In this document: in pieces, positions 4,168 through 33,163 of the stretch
How positions within the stretch are numbered: position 1 is the stretch's first letter
How the letters are laid out: every line of letters starts with the position of its first letter
NCBI GenBank assembly: GCA_964419615.1
Contig: CAYQPU010000007.1
Coordinates: 1-51,563, forward strand
Reading direction: 5' to 3'
DNA from: an uncultured Methanosarcinales archaeon
GTDB taxonomy: Archaea; Nanobdellota; Nanobdellia; Woesearchaeales; JAGVZT01
Length of the DNA: 51,563 bases
The notes under the pieces: model-generated
The model's input: the letters and a program-made list of their open reading frames with translations, nothing else
The model's database searches: none
Told to the model about the DNA's origin: nothing
Made by a program: the position numbers and the translations under genes

Positions 4168-4998
4168 ATGAGGGAAAGAGTTACTTTAACTATCGATGAG
4201 AGTTTGCTGAAAAGTATTGACAACAGTGTTGATGGGCATAATGTTAAGAATAGAAGCCATGCAGTTGAGATGCTACTCAATAAAGCACTGGGTAGTCAAA
4301 TGCCTAAGCGCGCATTAATTCTTGCTGGTGGCAAGAGTAAACCTTTAAAGTCAAAATTTAAAGATACACCCCATGCCCTTACTCCTTTTAAAGATTCAAC
4401 TGTGATTGAACAGATAATAAAATTATTCAAAAAATATGAGATTCAGGATATAATCATAACATTGCATCATGATGCAGATGTTATCCAAGAGTATCTAGAG
4501 AAGAAAGATCTTGGTGTGAGAATAATTTTCATCAGAGAAGATTTTCCAATGGGTACTGCTGGTGCCCTAAGAAATGCCAGAGATTATCTAAAGTCCACTT
4601 TTTTTATGACTAATGCAGATGAATTAAAAGATGTTGATTTAAAGGACATGTATATGTTTCATCTTGATCATCATGGAAAGACAACTATTACTTTAACTAC
4701 TGTTAATGATCCAAGTAAATATGGAGTTGCTAATCTAACAGGTTATAATATCTTGAATTTTATTGAGAAACCAAGTAAGCAGAATGCTCCGAGCAATTTG
4801 ATTAATGCTGGTTTGTATATTATGGAACCAGAAGTCATTGATTATATTCCTGATGGTTTTGCCACTTTGGAGAATGATGTTTTTCCAAAGCTTGCTAAGG
4901 AAAATAATTTATTAGGATATTCATTTGGTGGTCAGTGGTTCTCACTGAACTCAGTGGAAGAATACAGAGTTGCAGAGAAAAAATGGAAAATGGTTTAA
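4168..4998 (+). CDS. Ribbon-helix-helix domain fused to a degenerate sugar-phosphate nucleotidyltransferase domain
   Basis: The N-terminal ~42 aa (RVTLTIDESLLKSID...NRSHAVEMLL) fit the RHH pattern. The rest aligns with NTP_transferase (ILAGG, E..P.GTAGAL, KYGV, FIEKP, INAGLY), but GxGTRL..PK has become GKSKPL..PH. Confidence 0.85.
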   Translation: MRERVTLTIDESLLKSIDNSVDGHNVKNRSHAVEMLLNKALGSQMPKRALILAGGKSKPLKSKFKDTPHALTPFKDSTVIEQIIKLFKKYEIQDIIITLHHDADVIQEYLEKKDLGVRIIFIREDFPMGTAGALRNARDYLKSTFFMTNADELKDVDLKDMYMFHLDHHGKTTITLTTVNDPSKYGVANLTGYNILNFIEKPSKQNAPSNLINAGLYIMEPEVIDYIPDGFATLENDVFPKLAKENNLLGYSFGGQWFSLNSVEEYRVAEKKWKMV

Positions 4999-7186: not shown

Positions 7187-7822
7187 ATGGATAAACCAGA
7201 TGATACGAGCGAAACACCAAAAACATTCTTTGGTGAATTAGTGCAGGATTTGTTGGAGAATGAAAAAATAAGTCCTGAAATAGCAGATAAGATTGGAGAG
7301 AGTGGAGCTACTCTTGAAAAACTTCTGTTTGGGGTTAGGGAATGGGCTGATGAGATTATGCCTGCATATATGGAAGTGGGATCAGCAGTAGCTGGGCAGG
7401 TAAGCGAATACGCAGTTTCAGAGGTCAAAAAAGCAGAAGCATTACTGAGGGGAAAAGCTGCAGAGTTTACTGGATATGCTACTACATTTGCAAAAGAGAA
7501 AATACCATTGGAAAGCTTCAAGAGACTGATTTATGTAAGAGAAGCATTTAGGGCAAAAGACGCAATTGAGCCTCTCGGGGAAACTGTTCCAATTGATATG
7601 GTGATTGGACTCTACAAGAGATATGGAGAGGATGATGAAGCAATTCTGACAGTGGAAGCTCTTTCAAGTTTTGTACAAGAGAATCAGACAGCATTGTCAA
7701 AATATGTGGCCACAAGCAAACCAAGTCCAGAAGCACTGTTTACTGCTGCAGCTACATTGTATGATGTAACTGGCAAGGATTTTGATCAGGTCAAAATCGA
7801 ATTGGATGCATTAGTAGAATAG
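7187..7822 (+). CDS. Hypothetical helical protein (~211 aa)
   Basis: Open frame with a strong GGAGG-rich SD before ATG 7187; no recognisable motif. Confidence 0.7.
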   Translation: MDKPDDTSETPKTFFGELVQDLLENEKISPEIADKIGESGATLEKLLFGVREWADEIMPAYMEVGSAVAGQVSEYAVSEVKKAEALLRGKAAEFTGYATTFAKEKIPLESFKRLIYVREAFRAKDAIEPLGETVPIDMVIGLYKRYGEDDEAILTVEALSSFVQENQTALSKYVATSKPSPEALFTAAATLYDVTGKDFDQVKIELDALVE

Positions 7823-7921
7823 AATTTTTTATTTCTTTTTATTTGGTTTTAAGTTATGAAACTCATTGTGGTTTGAGGATCTCTCAAAATTGCATAAATG
7901 GATTTTCATCTCCCTAGAAAA

Positions 7922-9060: not shown

Positions 9061-9531
9061 TTATTTCCTTTTAAAAATGTTGTCAGATTCTTTAAGATAT
9101 AGCCTTACTCTATCCATTGTTGAGGCTAATAAAAAGTCTTCAATTTTCTTTTCAAATATTTCTGAAAGTTCCAAGAACTCTGTTATTCGATATGTGTTTC
9201 TTACTTTTTCAACTATGAACAAATCTCTTAATCTTAGTAATTGTCGCCTGATGTTTGATGGAGCAATGCCAATCATGGGTTGCTTCGCCCTTTTTCTTGC
9301 ACCTTTAACTCTTTTTACAACTTCTGTTGAAGTTAGAAGTTTTTTTTGCTTTTTTGCTTTTAATAGAACATACAACACATCAACAATTACGTCTCTGGAA
9401 TCTCCGGGTTGGAGTAATCCAAGACTTAGACAAAGCTTTCTTATTAAGGCACGGCCACTGAGCTTACCTGGCTTTTCATATTTCCTAAAAGTAAGCTCAC
9501 TTAGAGGAGTATCCCTGCTTATTGCTGCCAT
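9061..9531 (-). CDS. Conserved archaeal hypothetical protein, winged-HTH-like
   Basis: Helical protein with SNIRRQLLRL..LFIVEK...YRI, resembling a recognition helix plus wing. Start refined to MAAISRD. Confidence 0.6.
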   Translation of the reverse strand: MAAISRDTPLSELTFRKYEKPGKLSGRALIRKLCLSLGLLQPGDSRDVIVDVLYVLLKAKKQKKLLTSTEVVKRVKGARKRAKQPMIGIAPSNIRRQLLRLRDLFIVEKVRNTYRITEFLELSEIFEKKIEDFLLASTMDRVRLYLKESDNIFKRK

Positions 9532-13060: not shown

Positions 13061-13074
13061 TGCGGGGGAGGGGA

Positions 13075-13220
13075 CTTTCATAATCTTTTACTAGTTTTAA
13101 CCAAAGGCAGCACTCTTATGTGCTTGAGTCGTGGCCATCATGTTTTCATGAACGCCACATTATGGGACTTTATGTCCCATTACTTTTGGTCAAGCTTTTG
13201 CGCAAAGCGGAAAAGACTGA
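13075..13220 (-). other. tRNA intron 3 (position 59/60, 146 nt, multi-branched structure)
   Basis: BHB: central helix UUCA/UGAA, bulges AA|U and AG|U, flanked by the T-stem and the intron helix AGUCUUUU/AAAAGAUU. Confidence 0.9.
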
Positions 13221-13252
13221 TTTGAACCCCCGGACCCACTAAGGGACAGGAT

Positions 13253-13277
13253 ATCTCAGGTACAATTGAGTGTCCAT
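13253..13277 (-). other. tRNA intron 2 (canonical 37/38, 25 nt)
   Basis: Central helix CUUA/UGAG, bulges AG|A and AU|A; the intron-side helix is weak (relaxed BHB). Confidence 0.9.
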
Positions 13278-13309
13278 CTTAAGTCCTGCGCGTTTGACCA
13301 GACTTCGCT

Positions 13310-13341
13310 TTAAGGATATGTGGAACAAATGCCCACACTCT
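13310..13341 (-). other. tRNA intron 1 (position 8/9, 32 nt)
   Basis: Central helix GGGG/CCUU, bulges GU|A and AA|A, intron helix GUGUGG/CCACAU. The AG redundancy also allows 9/10 or 10/11, but only 8/9 satisfies BHB geometry. Confidence 0.8.
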
Positions 13342-13942
13342 ACCCCCGCGTGTCTGGTATTTTTGATATGGGTTTAATCAAGTTTAAAAAATTTTCCTTT
13401 TGTTTATTTGTAACTCTGAGTACATAATGGGGTTTTCTATTTTCCTTTAGTATAGGTCCTCTCATAGTGTGTTTAAATCCCAAATCACCAAGTAATGCAG
13501 AAATATCATAAATTCCTTTTTTATTCGATGAGAAGAATCTGATGCCATTTACAGCTGAACCGTCTCCGTCAAAAAAACCTCTGATAAAAGCAGTTTTGCA
13601 TTTTAAATCTCCAGTTTTTACTGCTTCTGGAACTTTCCAAGTAAAACTCCCCAAATTTGTGTAACTAATTATGTCTCTAATTATTACCATTTTACAAATA
13701 TTTATTTTATTATATTTTGTGATTTTGGGATAATAACCATATTGTTGATTTAGTAAATTTTGATAATGCACAAGTAACTTGATATCCTTGTTATATAACT
13801 CAATTCTTTCAGATTTATCATTCTTATAAAATCTCTTTTTTCCTCTATCTTTACCCCAATAACTTGAAAAAGATACAATGTGTGAGCCTTCTGCACATAA
13901 TAATCCCAAAATTTCTGACAGTTCTGGAGTTATTTTATTCAT
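13340..13942 (-). mobile_element. Free-standing two-motif LAGLIDADG homing endonuclease gene overlapping the tRNA-Leu 5' end
   Basis: Motif 1 LSEILGLLCAEGS and motif 2 TAFIRGFFDGDGS, both with the acidic catalytic residue. SD GAGGTGA at 13956-13950. No intein Hint residues. Last codons ACG CGG GGG TAG contain tRNA nt 1-8. Confidence 0.88.
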
Positions 13943-13945
13943 AAA

Positions 13946-13976
13946 CAAATCACCTCACAAAATTAGGGAGGATTTG
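13946..13976 (-). promoter_or_regulatory. Hairpin covering the endonuclease Shine-Dalgarno sequence
   Basis: CAAAUC-CUC ... GAG-GU-GAUUUG pairs across the GAGGUGA SD, 4 nt before the ATG. Confidence 0.5.
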
Positions 13977-14075
13977 GTTTATAAGAGTCACGCGGGAATG
14001 TCCAGTGACATTTTAATAAATCGCAACATATATAAATACTAAATATCGTGAAATTATTAAAAAGAGGTATGATGT

Positions 14076-16481
14076 ATGGATAAATCTAGTGAGATGATTC
14101 TTTGGTTTGATCAGGTTGGTATTGAGGATACTCCTTATGTTGGGGGGAAAAACTCATCATTAGGAGAGATGTATCAAAATTTAACTGCAAAAGGAGTTAA
14201 TGTTCCAAATGGTTTTTGTATTACAGCTCATGCATATAGGTTTCTTTTGGAGCATAATAAGATTGTTGACAAGATTAAGGAGATACTAAGTGATCTTAAT
14301 GTACATGATATTAGGAATCTTCAAGAAAGAGGAGAAAAAGTTAGACAGACTATAAGAGAAACAGAGTTTCCTGAAGAGTTAAAAACTTGCATTCTGAAAG
14401 GTTATAAGGATTTATGTAAAGATTATGACCATAATAGTGATGTTGCTGTTAGAAGTTCTGCTACTGCTGAAGATTTGCCTGACGCAAGTTTTGCTGGTCA
14501 ACAAGAGACTTATCTAAATATTCGAGGAGAACATGCATTAATGGATGCTATTAAGAAGTGTTTTGCATCTTTGTTTACAAATAGAGCTATTAGTTATCGA
14601 GAGGATAAAGGGTTTGATCATTTTTCTATTGCTCTAAGTGTTACTGTTCAAAAAATGATTAGGTCAGATCTTGCATGCTCAGGAGTTATGTTTTCTATTG
14701 ATACTGAATCTGGTTTTCAAAATGCAGCTTTTATTACTGGTGCTTGGGGATTGGGTGAGAATGTTGTGCAAGGAAAGGTTAATCCAGATGAGTTTTATGT
14801 TTTTAAACCAACTTTGAAAAAAGGTTTTAAGCCAATCTTAATGAAAAAACTTGGTGATAAAAGAATTAAGATGATTTACGATATGCAGGGCAATAAACCT
14901 GTTAAGGATGTGGCTGTAAGTATTAATGAACAGCAGAAATTTACATTAAATGATGAAGAGATTCTAAAGCTCGCGGAGTGGGCTTGTATTATTGAGGATC
15001 ACTACTCTCATAAAGCTGGCCATTATAAACCAATGGACATGGAGTGGGCCAAGGATGGTATGTCTGAAAAATTGTATATTGTTCAGGCAAGGCCCGAGAC
15101 TGTTCACGCTAATAAGGATAAAAACAAACTAAAAAAGTGGGTTATGAAGGAACAAGGAGATGTTGTTGCTGAAGGTCAAAGTGTAGGTGAAATGATTGGC
15201 CAAGGAAAGGCACGTATTATTAAGAGTGTTGAAGGTATACATGAGTTCCAAAAAGGAGAGGTTTTAGTTACTGAGATGACTGATCCAGATTGGGAGCCAA
15301 TTATGAAGATTGCTTCTGCTATTGTTGCCAACAGAGGTGGAAGAACTTGTCATGCAGCCATAATCAGCCGTGAATTAGGTATACCTTGTGTTGTTGGTAC
15401 TAATGATGGAACTACTAAAGTGCAGCAGGGTGAAGACATAACTGTGGATTGTTCACAGGGTGAGAGAGGGTATGTGTATAAGGGTCAATTAAAATTTGAC
15501 ATTAATGAATTTGATTTACATGATATTCCCAAGACTAAAACAAAGATCATGATGAATATTGGTATGCCATCAAAAGCTTTTGAACTTAGCTTTATTCCCA
15601 ACAGTGGTGTTGGTTTAGTAAGAGAAGAGTTTATTATTAATTCATCTATTGGTGTGCATCCAATGGCTTTGATTGATTATGACAAGATCAGTGATGAGAA
15701 CATAAAAGTCAAGATCAATGAAAAAGCAAAGGGATATGATAACAAGGTTGATTTTTATGTTGATAAATTAAGTCAAGGCATTGCTATGATTGCTGCTGCT
15801 TTTTGGCCAAAGGATGTTATTGTTAGGTTAAGTGATTTTAAGAGTAATGAGTATGCTAATCTTGTTGGTGGAAAATTGTATGAACCTAAAGAGGATAATC
15901 CAATGATTGGTTGGAGAGGTGCATCAAGATATTACTCAACTTTTGCGCCCGCTTTTGCTTTAGAATGCAAGGCTCTTCACAAGGTAAGATCTGAAATGGG
16001 ACTTAAGAATGTTAAGGTGATGGTTCCATTTTGCAGGACTGTTGATGAAGGTAAAAAAGTTTTGCATGAGATGAGTCAGAATGGTTTGAAGAAAGGAGAG
16101 GATGGCTTAGAAGTTTATGTTATGTGTGAGATTCCTTCAAATGTTATTTTAGCTGATCAATTTTGTGAAATTTTTGATGGTTTTAGTATTGGTAGTAATG
16201 ATTTGACTCAATTAACACTTGGTCTGGATAGAGATTCAGAACTGGTTAGTCATGTTTATGATGAGAGGAACGAAGCGGTTAAGAGGCTGATAAAACAAAT
16301 TATTACTGTTGCAAAGGAAAAGAAAAAGAAGATTGGAATTTGTGGGCAAGCTCCGTCTGATTTCCCTGATTTTGCTCAGTTCTTGGTTGAGTGTGGTATT
16401 GATTCCATTAGTTTAAATCCAGATAGTGTAATTAAAACCACTTTGTCTATTGCTAATAAGGAAAAGGAGTTATGGATGTAG
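14076..16481 (+). CDS. ppsA: Phosphoenolpyruvate synthase (pyruvate, water dikinase)
   Basis: VGGKNSSLGEM, AVRSSATAED, QARPET, GGRTCHAAI phospho-His, GFSIGSNDLTQ, GICGQAPS. Confidence 0.97.
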   Translation: MDKSSEMILWFDQVGIEDTPYVGGKNSSLGEMYQNLTAKGVNVPNGFCITAHAYRFLLEHNKIVDKIKEILSDLNVHDIRNLQERGEKVRQTIRETEFPEELKTCILKGYKDLCKDYDHNSDVAVRSSATAEDLPDASFAGQQETYLNIRGEHALMDAIKKCFASLFTNRAISYREDKGFDHFSIALSVTVQKMIRSDLACSGVMFSIDTESGFQNAAFITGAWGLGENVVQGKVNPDEFYVFKPTLKKGFKPILMKKLGDKRIKMIYDMQGNKPVKDVAVSINEQQKFTLNDEEILKLAEWACIIEDHYSHKAGHYKPMDMEWAKDGMSEKLYIVQARPETVHANKDKNKLKKWVMKEQGDVVAEGQSVGEMIGQGKARIIKSVEGIHEFQKGEVLVTEMTDPDWEPIMKIASAIVANRGGRTCHAAIISRELGIPCVVGTNDGTTKVQQGEDITVDCSQGERGYVYKGQLKFDINEFDLHDIPKTKTKIMMNIGMPSKAFELSFIPNSGVGLVREEFIINSSIGVHPMALIDYDKISDENIKVKINEKAKGYDNKVDFYVDKLSQGIAMIAAAFWPKDVIVRLSDFKSNEYANLVGGKLYEPKEDNPMIGWRGASRYYSTFAPAFALECKALHKVRSEMGLKNVKVMVPFCRTVDEGKKVLHEMSQNGLKKGEDGLEVYVMCEIPSNVILADQFCEIFDGFSIGSNDLTQLTLGLDRDSELVSHVYDERNEAVKRLIKQIITVAKEKKKKIGICGQAPSDFPDFAQFLVECGIDSISLNPDSVIKTTLSIANKEKELWM

Positions 16482-32054: not shown

Positions 32055-32684
32055 ATGGGAAACTGGGAGTCTGTTTTCAAGGATAAAGGTAAATTTTTTC
32101 ATAAGCCTCACAAAGATGTTGTAAAACTAGTCAAGCTATTAAAACAAAACCAAGTCAATGAGGTTTTAGACTTGGGTTGTGGGAGTGGAAGACATGCTGT
32201 TTTTTTGGCAAAGAATGGTTTTGATGTTTATGGTATGGATAACAGCAAATCAGGACTTGATCACACAAGAAAATGGCTAAAAAAAGAAAGTTTAACAGCA
32301 AAGCTAAAAAAAGCTAACTGTTATGAAAAATACCCATATAAAGATAATTTCTTTGATGCAGTGATTTCTGTTCAGGTTATTCACCATGCTGTTATTAAAG
32401 ATATTGAGTTTTGTATCTCAGAGATTAAAAGATGTCTTAAACCTGGAGGTATTGTTTTTGTTACAGTTCCAAAAACAAAGAAAAACAAGTTCAGGTCAAA
32501 AATAAAGATGATTGCTCCAAGAACATTTGTTCCTTTGGATGGTCTTGAAGTGGGTACACCGCATTATCATTTTAATAAAAGTAAATTAAGAGAATGTTTT
32601 AAGGATTTTAATTTGTTAGATTTGTATGTTGATGAGCTTAAGCATTATTGTTTTCTTGGTAGATTAAAAAATAGTAACAATTAA
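32055..32684 (+). CDS. Class I SAM-dependent methyltransferase
   Basis: VLDLGCGSGRH, GMDNS, FDAVIS, LKPGG. Confidence 0.93.
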   Translation: MGNWESVFKDKGKFFHKPHKDVVKLVKLLKQNQVNEVLDLGCGSGRHAVFLAKNGFDVYGMDNSKSGLDHTRKWLKKESLTAKLKKANCYEKYPYKDNFFDAVISVQVIHHAVIKDIEFCISEIKRCLKPGGIVFVTVPKTKKNKFRSKIKMIAPRTFVPLDGLEVGTPHYHFNKSKLRECFKDFNLLDLYVDELKHYCFLGRLKNSNN

Positions 32685-32695
32685 TGTTGTTATCA

Positions 32696-33163
32696 TTAAA
32701 CAAAATCAGCCAAATTCAATTCATCTGCTTCGATCATAATTTTATCTTTATAACCTGAGGGCACAAATATTCCTAAGATTCCTGCTGTCATGGGTAGGTG
32801 TAATACTCCTGCTGGAACAGTGTATCCTTCACCTGAGTTTAAACTTGTTACTGTAATCAGGTCTCTTTTTGATTCAATTAATTTTGTCAAAGTTTCTTCA
32901 TTTATCATTTCTTCCGAAAGATTTTCTCCTCTTAAGTCCAACTTATAAATGTCACAATCTGCTTTGGTTTCTACTCCTTCCACTATCCCGTCTCTTATTG
33001 TATAGGTCTTTTCACCTTCTAGGTAAAAACAAGTTGGTCCAGGACCTTTGTTGTTAGAGTGTACTTCAGCAAGGTATATTCCTCTTTCTTTATCATTAAT
33101 AAATTCTATACCAAATACTCCTGGTGCAAGATCATCATATCTGACTGGTATTATTTTGGGCAT
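32696..33163 (-). CDS. Hypothetical protein, possibly cupin-like
   Basis: EVH...FY.EG and G....VPAGVLH resemble cupin motifs (weak). Confidence 0.6.
   Translation of the reverse strand: MPKIIPVRYDDLAPGVFGIEFINDKERGIYLAEVHSNNKGPGPTCFYLEGEKTYTIRDGIVEGVETKADCDIYKLDLRGENLSEEMINEETLTKLIESKRDLITVTSLNSGEGYTVPAGVLHLPMTAGILGIFVPSGYKDKIMIEADELNLADFV

Follow-up and report, generated by a model that had tools for sequence, protein, structure and literature searches.

The DNA analysed here (the window) is a stretch of 51,563 nucleotides, contig CAYQPU010000007.1 of assembly GCA_964419615.1, deposited as an uncultured Methanosarcinales archaeon and placed by GTDB in the Woesearchaeales. Its minus strand carries a tRNA-Leu(UAA) gene interrupted by three introns, of which the largest, 146 nt in length, lies in the T-loop between tRNA positions 59 and 60 (Table 1). 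This 146-nt insert is probably one copy of a modular, non-autonomous and evolutionarily mobile family of spliceable introns in the Woesearchaeota. The window's own genome, G000, comprises 1.48 Mb in 64 contigs with 33% G+C and is 99% complete. The close relatives are G001, a congener represented by a Woesearchaeota metagenome-assembled genome (MAG) from the Suakin Deep brine of the Red Sea, and G003 and G004, which are sister genera of the same family. Over ~3 kb, G001 loci are identical to contigs from 'Candidatus Woesearchaeota archaeon isolate SuakinDeep_MAG79_5', and the organism of the window accordingly belongs to that genus.

The interrupted tRNA-Leu(UAA) gene and its T-loop intron

The acceptor stem of the tRNA-Leu gene is a perfect helix of 7 bp (GCGGGGG/CCCCCGC), the discriminator base is A, the variable arm is long and the anticodon loop reads CUUAAGA; a TATA-like A/T box lies ~35 nt upstream and a T-run beyond the 3' end. 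In its unspliced form the gene is missed by ARAGORN and at Rfam gathering thresholds, neither of which reports anything across the whole window. After deletion in silico of 13220..13075 and of 32 nt following position 9/10, a piece located by scanning deletions across the D region, ARAGORN reports a tRNA-Leu(TAA) whose 37/38 intron is 25 nt long. At the site of intron 1 the G001 orthologue reads GCGGGGGTAGCGAAG and lacks that intron, while the 37/38 intron is common to G000 and G001.

Table 1. Positions of the tRNA-Leu(UAA) gene, its introns and the structural elements of the 146-nt intron in the window
Feature	Position	Strand	Basis or remark
tRNA-Leu(UAA) gene, three introns	13349..13061	minus	sequence; ARAGORN on the form spliced in silico; orthologues in G001, G003 and G004
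Intron 1, 32 nt, after tRNA position 9/10	13340-13309	minus	boundary ambiguous by 1 nt; ARAGORN call requires its deletion
Intron 2, 25 nt, canonical position 37/38	13277-13253	minus	ARAGORN intron call i(41,25); homologous intron in G001
Intron 3, 146 nt, T-loop position 59/60	13220-13075	minus	bulge-helix-bulge, fold, empty-site orthologue in G004
Conserved 5' module: CAGUCUUUU, tip CGC-UUU-GCG, AAAAGCUUG, then GACCAAAA	13219-13184	minus	follows the 5' splice site in every member of the family
9-bp closing stem, 5' strand UUGACCAAA	13193-13185	minus	overlaps the module; 92% of cells paired across 9 homologues
Hairpin 1 of cargo A (AUGGGAC / GUCCCAU)	13180-13162	minus	6/7 pairs compensatory, 21 copies
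Hairpin 2 of cargo A (GUGGC..UCAUG / CAUGA..GCCAC)	13158-13131	minus	lower stem 5/6 pairs compensatory; register of upper stem varies among copies
Hairpin 3 (AGCAC / GUGCU), optional ~30-nt sub-module	13124-13109	minus	69% of cells paired; missing in 5/14 T-loop copies
9-bp closing stem, 3' strand UUUGGUUAA	13105-13097	minus	goes together with hairpin 3 in short copies
3' closing segment: AAAAGAUU, A, UGAA, AG	13089-13075	minus	helix adjacent to the bulge-helix-bulge, strand of the central helix, 3' bulge; consensus AAAAGGUUR-N-UGAAAG

The junctions of the 146-nt insert form a bulge-helix-bulge (BHB) structure, in which UUCA of the T-loop (U54-U55-C56-A57) pairs with UGAA of the intron (13080-13077), the 5' site lying in the bulge A58-A59|U and the 3' site in A-G|U60. 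The T-stem flanks the structure on one side and an 8-bp helix inside the intron, AGUCUUUU (13218-13211) with AAAAGAUU (13089-13082), on the other, with a single C.A mismatch next to the 5' bulge. The arrangement is thus that of an hBHBh' motif, with two 3-nt bulges, a 4-bp helix between them and flanking helices. The T-arm of tRNA-Leu(UAA) in G004 is uninterrupted and has the same sequence as the two exons of the window joined together, which gives independent support for the intron boundaries. As judged from its sequence, the 146-nt insert is a spliceable archaeal BHB intron at position 59/60 of tRNA-Leu(UAA).

The minimum free energy (MFE) of the 146 nt is -48.9 kcal/mol, compared with -28.0 +/- 3.7 kcal/mol for 200 dinucleotide shuffles (z = -5.67), none of which folded as well. 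An earlier interpretation of the window, made from the letters alone and here called the sequence-only reading, had drawn a 9-bp stem that closes three hairpins, and the MFE structure reproduces this fold at exactly the positions given in Table 1; all coordinates of that reading hold. Its statement that the intron contains no open reading frame is true for the tRNA strand, and the opposite strand has just frames of 35-40 aa. In place of the GCUUU/AAAGC hairpin that it had drawn next to the BHB helix, covariation in the family favours the CGC/GCG tip of the conserved 5' module hairpin.

A family of introns with a common 5' module

Searching G000 with the 146-nt intron (nhmmer) returned ~18 relatives and a profile built from those returned ~30, nearly all in tRNA genes and at the same site. 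A covariance model of the central part of the intron (cargo A; model R1) gave 22 matches at ~20 distinct loci in this genome, namely 14 T-loops, 3 D-loops, 2 positions 37/38 and 1 RNase P RNA gene. The copy number, which the sequence-only reading had left to a homology search, is thus ~20 homologous copies in RNA genes of G000.

Members of the family are built from three parts. The 5' module begins 1-3 nt past the 5' splice site and consists of the hairpin CRANCUUUU - tip - AAAAGNUYG, followed by GANCAAAA, which includes the linker GA-N-CAAAA. The cargo comes next, and there are two main kinds in G000, type A with two hairpins and with or without a third, and type B with a different sequence of ~35 nt; other genomes have other cargos, and the total intron length ranges from 41 to 264 nt (87-191 nt in G000). 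The 3' segment, AAAAGGUUR-N-UGAAAG, closes the intron. Copies in other tRNA genes are typically placed as GGTTCRAA | N-C-R-A-N-CTTTT ... GAAAG | TCC. The AAAAGGUUR of the 3' segment is complementary to CRANCUUUU of the module, and the two ends of the intron are near-inverted (CAACCUUUU..UUGACCAAA versus UUUGGUCAA..AAAAGGUUR), a pairing that the BHB intron needs as well.

Full-length type A copies have an extra piece of ~30 nt that provides hairpin 3 and the segment UUUGGUYAA, the latter pairing with UUGACCAAA of the module to form the 9-bp stem. This piece is missing as a clean indel from five of the 14 type A copies in T-loops, which makes the four-way junction an optional addition and not the core of the family. 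The junction is the RNA fold of the near-inverted terminal segments together with the cargo. The four-way junction that headed the sequence-only reading is thus present in the window copy; it is absent from a third of the sibling copies, so it does not define the family.

Compensatory changes are plentiful in the cargo. In 21 copies, 98.5% of the cells of hairpins 1 and 2 are paired and 11 of the 13 pairs show compensatory changes, which was matched by none of 500 shuffles, and sliding the partners lowers pairing to 25-45%. For the whole junction, tested on the nine full-length homologues, 85.7% of the pair cells are paired against 78.6% in shuffled alignments, and 17 of 46 pairs are compensatory (0/500 shuffles); hairpin 1 reaches 100% and the closing stem 92%, with hairpin 3 the weakest at 69%. 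The segment ACAAGAU of hairpin 2 and the linker GA-N-CAAAA are near-invariant. The sequence-only reading had associated a merely neutral insertion with a lack of homologues or covariation, and both are found here.

The module hairpin was examined in 57 distinct introns from many genomes. Its position 2 is AU in 26, GC in 23 and CG in 8 of them and is paired in all 57, and a pyrimidine-pyrimidine mismatch is conserved at position 4 in 45. When the 5' strand of the module is instead set against the distal AAAAGGUUR, position 4 is paired in 46/57 introns; this distal test used a fixed register, which is blurred by differences of 1 nt among copies, and its figures are lower bounds. In constrained folding, 24 of 31 introns preferred the distal pairing that completes the BHB, and the median advantage was 3.4 kcal/mol. 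The proximal and distal states lie within ~1 kcal/mol of each other in several type A copies of G000 and are 2.8 kcal/mol apart in the window copy. Plausibly, on this folding analysis, the module is bistable, the proximal strand and the distal, BHB-completing strand being alternative partners of its 5' strand. Such bistable pairing could time splicing or serve mobility.

The cargo has a narrow distribution and the module a wide one. Model R1 found 10 matches in G001, a single match in each of three further genomes of the family, the unpublished G006 among them, and none in 53 other genomes of the order that were searched. A model of the T-loop plus module (R2) matched 60 of 151 sampled genomes of the order, including the unpublished G118 and G127, with the most matches, 31, in G000. 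In a scan of one genome per prokaryotic species the exact T-loop-plus-module string occurred on 50 contigs, most of them labelled Woesearchaeota and the remainder Aenigmatarchaeota, Micrarchaeota, Bilamarchaeaceae or 'uncultured Methanosarcinales', the last label being taken at face value only.

The tRNA set of G000 is affected as a whole. With introns allowed, ARAGORN finds just 10 tRNA genes in this nearly complete genome, because family introns interrupt most tRNA genes, and most of these hold 2-3 introns. The tRNA sets of DPANN genomes are known to be incompletely predicted (PMC5829648). Our own finder returned 474 candidates in its first version, mostly false, and 42 in a stricter version, of which 38 were accepted. 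Among these 38 credible genes, 30 (~80%) have a 59/60 intron and 20 of the 30 introns are in the module family, counts that come from a heuristic finder and represent a lower bound.

Members of the family also interrupt stable RNA genes other than those for tRNA, and within tRNA genes module and cargo A occur in D-loops and at 37/38 as well as in T-loops. The RNase P RNA gene (RF00373, 101 bits; C3:47769-47909, minus strand) is interrupted near its 5' end by a cargo A member that has the module at its 5' end and an inverted module at its 3' end and so matches on both strands. The 16S rRNA gene (C1:~7680-7830) contains a module-first intron of ~150 nt at GGAUUAGAU|ACCC, and the 3' end of this intron fits the local exon, with CUAA pairing with UUAG.

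G000 encodes the enzymes expected to process such introns. Its sole EndA gene (C3:~32055-32714, minus strand) specifies a protein of 219 aa (PF01974, 101 bits) with a single catalytic unit, i.e. alpha-type, and a lysine-rich N-terminal tail, and an RtcB ligase is encoded as well (PF01139, 538 bits). This one single-unit EndA occurs alongside an abundance of non-canonical introns in D-loops, T-loops and other sites. Alpha4-type EndAs bearing an extra loop are reported from several DPANN lineages, in association with a larger number of disrupted tRNA genes (PMC5829648), and the epsilon2 EndA of ARMAN-2 cuts a 59/60 intron in vitro (PMC3239211).

Probable movement between sites and the explanations weighed

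Orthologous genes of close relatives differ in their T-loop introns. The T-loop of tRNA-Leu(UAA) has no intron in G003 and G004, an unrelated intron of 30 nt in G001 and the 146-nt intron in G000. In ten orthologous tRNA pairs of G000 and G001 the 5' portions (exons and any upstream introns) are mostly 86-94% identical, and the T-loop introns are unrelated or of another type in at least six of the ten. The converse is seen within genomes. The introns of Leu(CAA) and Lys(CUU) in G001 are 92.7% identical, with the first ~100 nt identical as judged by eye, in unrelated exons, whereas the Lys(CUU) introns of the orthologues in G000 and G001 are just 57% identical; in G000, type B copies from five tRNAs share 80-92% identity.

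The window copy is a mosaic, positions 1-64 of which match the copy at C21:21551, positions 57-96 that on C16, and positions 89-128 those at C21:14628 and on C35, and it shares windows of 24/24 identical positions with another copy. This pattern, together with the identical tracts of ~100 nt in G001, suggests gene conversion or ectopic recombination between copies. A module-plus-cargo element of ~110 bp was also found outside RNA genes, at C48:~4745-4870 of G000, in antisense orientation between the genes for uL23 and uL2 and ending at the uL2 start codon. The uL23-uL2 spacing is 1-8 bp in G001, G003 and G004, i.e. the site is empty, and this antisense copy therefore requires insertion at the DNA level.

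Taken together, these observations favour the reading of the 146-nt insert as a copy of a mobile intron family, and a mechanism can be proposed. The T-loop sequence is the same in all tRNAs, and a single intron sequence would form a cleavable 59/60 BHB in any of them; since every T-loop supplies the UUCA that the intron's UGAA needs, one sequence would suit all tRNA genes. The alpha-type EndA would cut out the intron and RtcB would join the exons, presumably circularising the intron, and with such removal an insertion would be harmless and copies could accumulate. The spread itself would take place at the DNA level, by ectopic recombination or gene conversion among copies plus occasional true insertion, with the conserved GGTTCRAA and (T)CC flanks and the module acting as homology for ectopic recombination. 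Copies outside T-loops would carry 3' ends tailored to the local exon. Selection may preserve the hairpins because they give a compact, self-contained fold in which the splice sites stay together and the folding of the pre-tRNA is spared, and no function in trans would be required. It is tempting to go further and regard the order-wide module as the handle of an undescribed class of mobile elements, rendered harmless by host tRNA splicing and carrying exchangeable structured RNA cargos, a proposal that we regard as rather doubtful at present.

Several points weigh against a mobile intron family. Excision and circularisation of the 146-nt intron are steps that we infer. The closest full-length sibling of the window copy is 78% identical, from which it follows that the arrival of this particular copy was not recent. 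Neither a transposase nor an autonomous partner was identified, target-site duplications were absent from the junctions checked, those of T-loops and uL23-uL2, and no target sequence is common to the insertion sites in T-loop, D-loop, 37/38, 16S rRNA and RNase P RNA. The IS200/IS605 family was considered as mobiliser and rejected, since the module is absent from the loci of the two TnpA (Y1 transposase) hits (best 10.6 bits) and the insertion sites are without a common target tetranucleotide. The share of interrupted tRNA genes is, as said, a heuristic minimum. Finally, the strong covariation of hairpins 1 and 2 and the invariant CAAGAU-like segment could reflect an RNA function over folding hygiene.

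The last point leads to the two proposals of the sequence-only reading. One, a hairpin-rich non-autonomous element sheltering in an intron, draws good support from the ~20 homologous copies and from the intron differences between congeners, and gains further support from the empty sites in sister genera, the mosaic of sibling sequences and the related copy outside RNA genes. The other is a functional cargo RNA: the intron would serve to deliver a four-way-junction RNA, stable and probably circular, with a role in trans as guide, decoy or protein scaffold. It would account for the compensatory changes that preserve hairpins 1 and 2 in 21-35 copies and for the near-invariant ACAAGAU and GA-N-CAAAA linker, and it is in line with the circularisation of tRNA introns at BHB motifs in all archaeal species examined (PMC12558985). 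However, outside a single genus the cargo was found only as one copy in each of three relatives, and orthologous genes either have it exchanged for another or lack it, which points to rapid turnover; ~20 divergent copies per genome are unlike the usual single gene of a functional RNA, and the strand that closes the junction is missing in a third of the copies. There is also no RUGAUGA/CUGA pair and no Rfam family. A search of the 146 nt for box C/D features gave no CUGA, AUGAUGG as the sole C-box candidate and no snoRNA/sRNA match in Rfam at E<=10, and over the locus at that threshold there was just a sub-threshold match to a Listeria sRNA on the opposite strand, taken as chance; ten other family loci gave tRNA matches only. 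We therefore consider a trans-acting cargo RNA unlikely, and currently less likely than a mobile insert.

Other identities of the structure were tried and rejected. Readings of hairpin 2 as C/D, H/ACA or k-turn were dropped for want of a D box, a pseudouridylation pocket and a tandem G.A arrangement, and a tRNA-like reading of the four-way junction fails because its linkers and loops are unfit for a cloverleaf and neither ARAGORN nor the Rfam tRNA model matches. Identity as a group I or group II intron was discarded since there is no Rfam intron family at the window locus and no reverse-transcriptase domain in G000.

The sites of insertion can also be read in other ways. That interruption benefits the host is an established idea in work on disrupted tRNA genes of archaea (discussed in PMC3239211), and the T-loop introns might break the 3'-half attachment sites that integrases of viruses and plasmids use in tRNA genes, the intron sequence being irrelevant. 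The interruption of ~80% of the detected tRNA genes at the same T-loop position is as this would predict. So are tandem fragments in G022 (G022:C18:~13850-14350), each made of the 3' part of an intron and a tRNA 3' exon and lying beside an intact tRNA gene, a pattern that matches what is left by integration at a tRNA attachment site. Protection of this kind leaves the conserved module, the covarying cargo and the copies in rRNA, RNase P RNA and intergenic DNA unexplained, and it is compatible with a selfish mobile element rather than an alternative to it; as a replacement for the mobile family we hold it to be highly unlikely. Mobility at the RNA level, in which an excised intron reverse-splices (EndA and RtcB acting backwards on a BHB formed in trans) and then reaches the DNA by reverse transcription and recombination, would explain why all sense-strand copies lie exactly at BHB-competent sites of stable RNAs, and the 3' UGAA of the intron can indeed pair in trans with any T-loop. 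Nevertheless, spliced products present no BHB to EndA, the 99%-complete G000 has no reverse-transcriptase domain (RVT_1), one copy lies antisense in the spacer of a protein operon, and the mosaic and partial-tract identities indicate recombination of DNA, so that this route seems even slightly less probable than host protection. A neutral, one-off structured insertion without relatives, the null case of the sequence-only reading, is ruled out for practical purposes by dozens of homologues with covariation.

Sequences resembling the mobile family in part were noted elsewhere. An intergenic array in G000 (C40:~9220-9530) has three degenerate repeats of ~30 nt (..ATCAAACAYCCCnnnGCATG..) with two 'spacers' between them, each opening with the module and a small hairpin cargo and each unit preceded by a TATA-like box; the units could be free-standing copies or source genes, and similar tandem arrays occur at G058:C62 and G152:C24. 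In G064 (63% complete, another family) the module and a structured cargo lie within a repeat of ~430 bp on C13, C19, C23, C37, C41 and C56, with inverted repeats of ~40 bp at its bounds, several copies at contig ends and an appearance like that of a miniature inverted-repeat transposable element (MITE). Possibly this repeat is a relative of the intron family that moves as a DNA transposon. The exact 36-nt T-loop-plus-module string GGTTCAAAACAACCTTTTCACAAAAGGTTGATCAAAA is present inside a group II intron at L038:6467-6502 and L041:1730-1765, in MAGs labelled Methanosarcinales / Methanobacteriota, where it occupies domain IV between the Rfam matches to D1-D4 and D5, and in L041 it lies ~25 nt upstream of the start of the reverse-transcriptase open reading frame; this match hints at a link between BHB introns and retroelements. 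A viral vector was considered and rejected, the module-only pattern having given 22 loci on viral contigs, none in a T-loop, which were read as chance. These look-alikes were A/T-rich hairpins with a TTGACC -35-like box before genes, matches in coding regions, and low-complexity tandem repeats in giant-virus bins.

Relation to known systems

Our literature search found no paper that describes this intron family, which is not proof that none exists. The best documented comparison is with the Thermoproteales, where non-canonical BHB tRNA introns have been described as 'transposing' (Sugahara 2008 and Fujishima 2010, as cited in PMC3239211 and bioRxiv 10.64898/2026.10.13.758758). The two systems share non-canonical BHB introns, related sequences across the isoacceptors of one genome, including families at 80% identity or more, and gains inferred to be recent. 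The Woesearchaeota family differs in its DPANN host and in its modular introns with an order-wide 5' module and exchangeable structured cargos; it is found overwhelmingly at 59/60, and also in 16S rRNA, RNase P RNA and the spacer of a protein operon. Thermoproteales introns are mostly 12-70 nt in length, as against the sizes given above for G000 and other genomes.

The long intron of haloarchaeal tRNA-Trp is excised and circularised and carries a box C/D guide RNA. The 146-nt intron resembles it as a long archaeal tRNA intron with a structured RNA, here presumably excised, and differs in having no C/D boxes, in its position at 59/60 instead of 37/38 and in being multi-copy rather than a single conserved gene. 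ARMAN-2 (Micrarchaeota) is, like our genome, a member of the DPANN with tRNA introns at 59/60 (PMC3239211). Its introns are short, that of the tested substrate having 13 nt, and neither family nor structure is reported for them (PMC3239211); its epsilon2 EndA has three units, unlike the single alpha-type unit of G000. The family is like MITEs in that its elements are short and ORF-less, occur in many copies that form sub-families and show internal indels, and include one insertion for which relatives have empty sites. The near-inverted termini, which fold into a long hairpin, recall MITEs too but are equally what a BHB intron requires. In contrast to MITEs it shows no target-site duplication, shared target or identified transposase, and its copies are nearly all in the sense strand of spliced stable-RNA genes at BHB-forming sites.

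For the arrival of archaeal tRNA introns at new sites the Thermoproteales are the best documented case, and a 2026 census of Asgard archaea found no route. The tRNA genes of Asgard archaea are similar to those of G000 in that most are interrupted, often by 2-3 introns, many are missed by standard annotators and the introns lie at BHB-competent sites. In that census 1.5% of Asgard introns fall in cross-isotype families at 80% identity, compared with 28% in the Thermoproteales, which served as positive control (bioRxiv 10.64898/2026.10.13.758758), and the route of arrival was left open, whereas cross-isotype families dominate in G000. The Woesearchaeota lineage is in this respect a clearer system, offering a long structured family with a conserved handle, sub-families whose members in unrelated tRNA genes are 80-93% identical, orthologous sites both with and without an intron in one family of genomes, recombination-like mosaics and a copy outside RNA genes. 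The reach of the family is shown by the presence of the same element inside the 16S rRNA and RNase P RNA genes, and models R1 and R2 could serve the re-annotation of tRNA genes across DPANN genomes.

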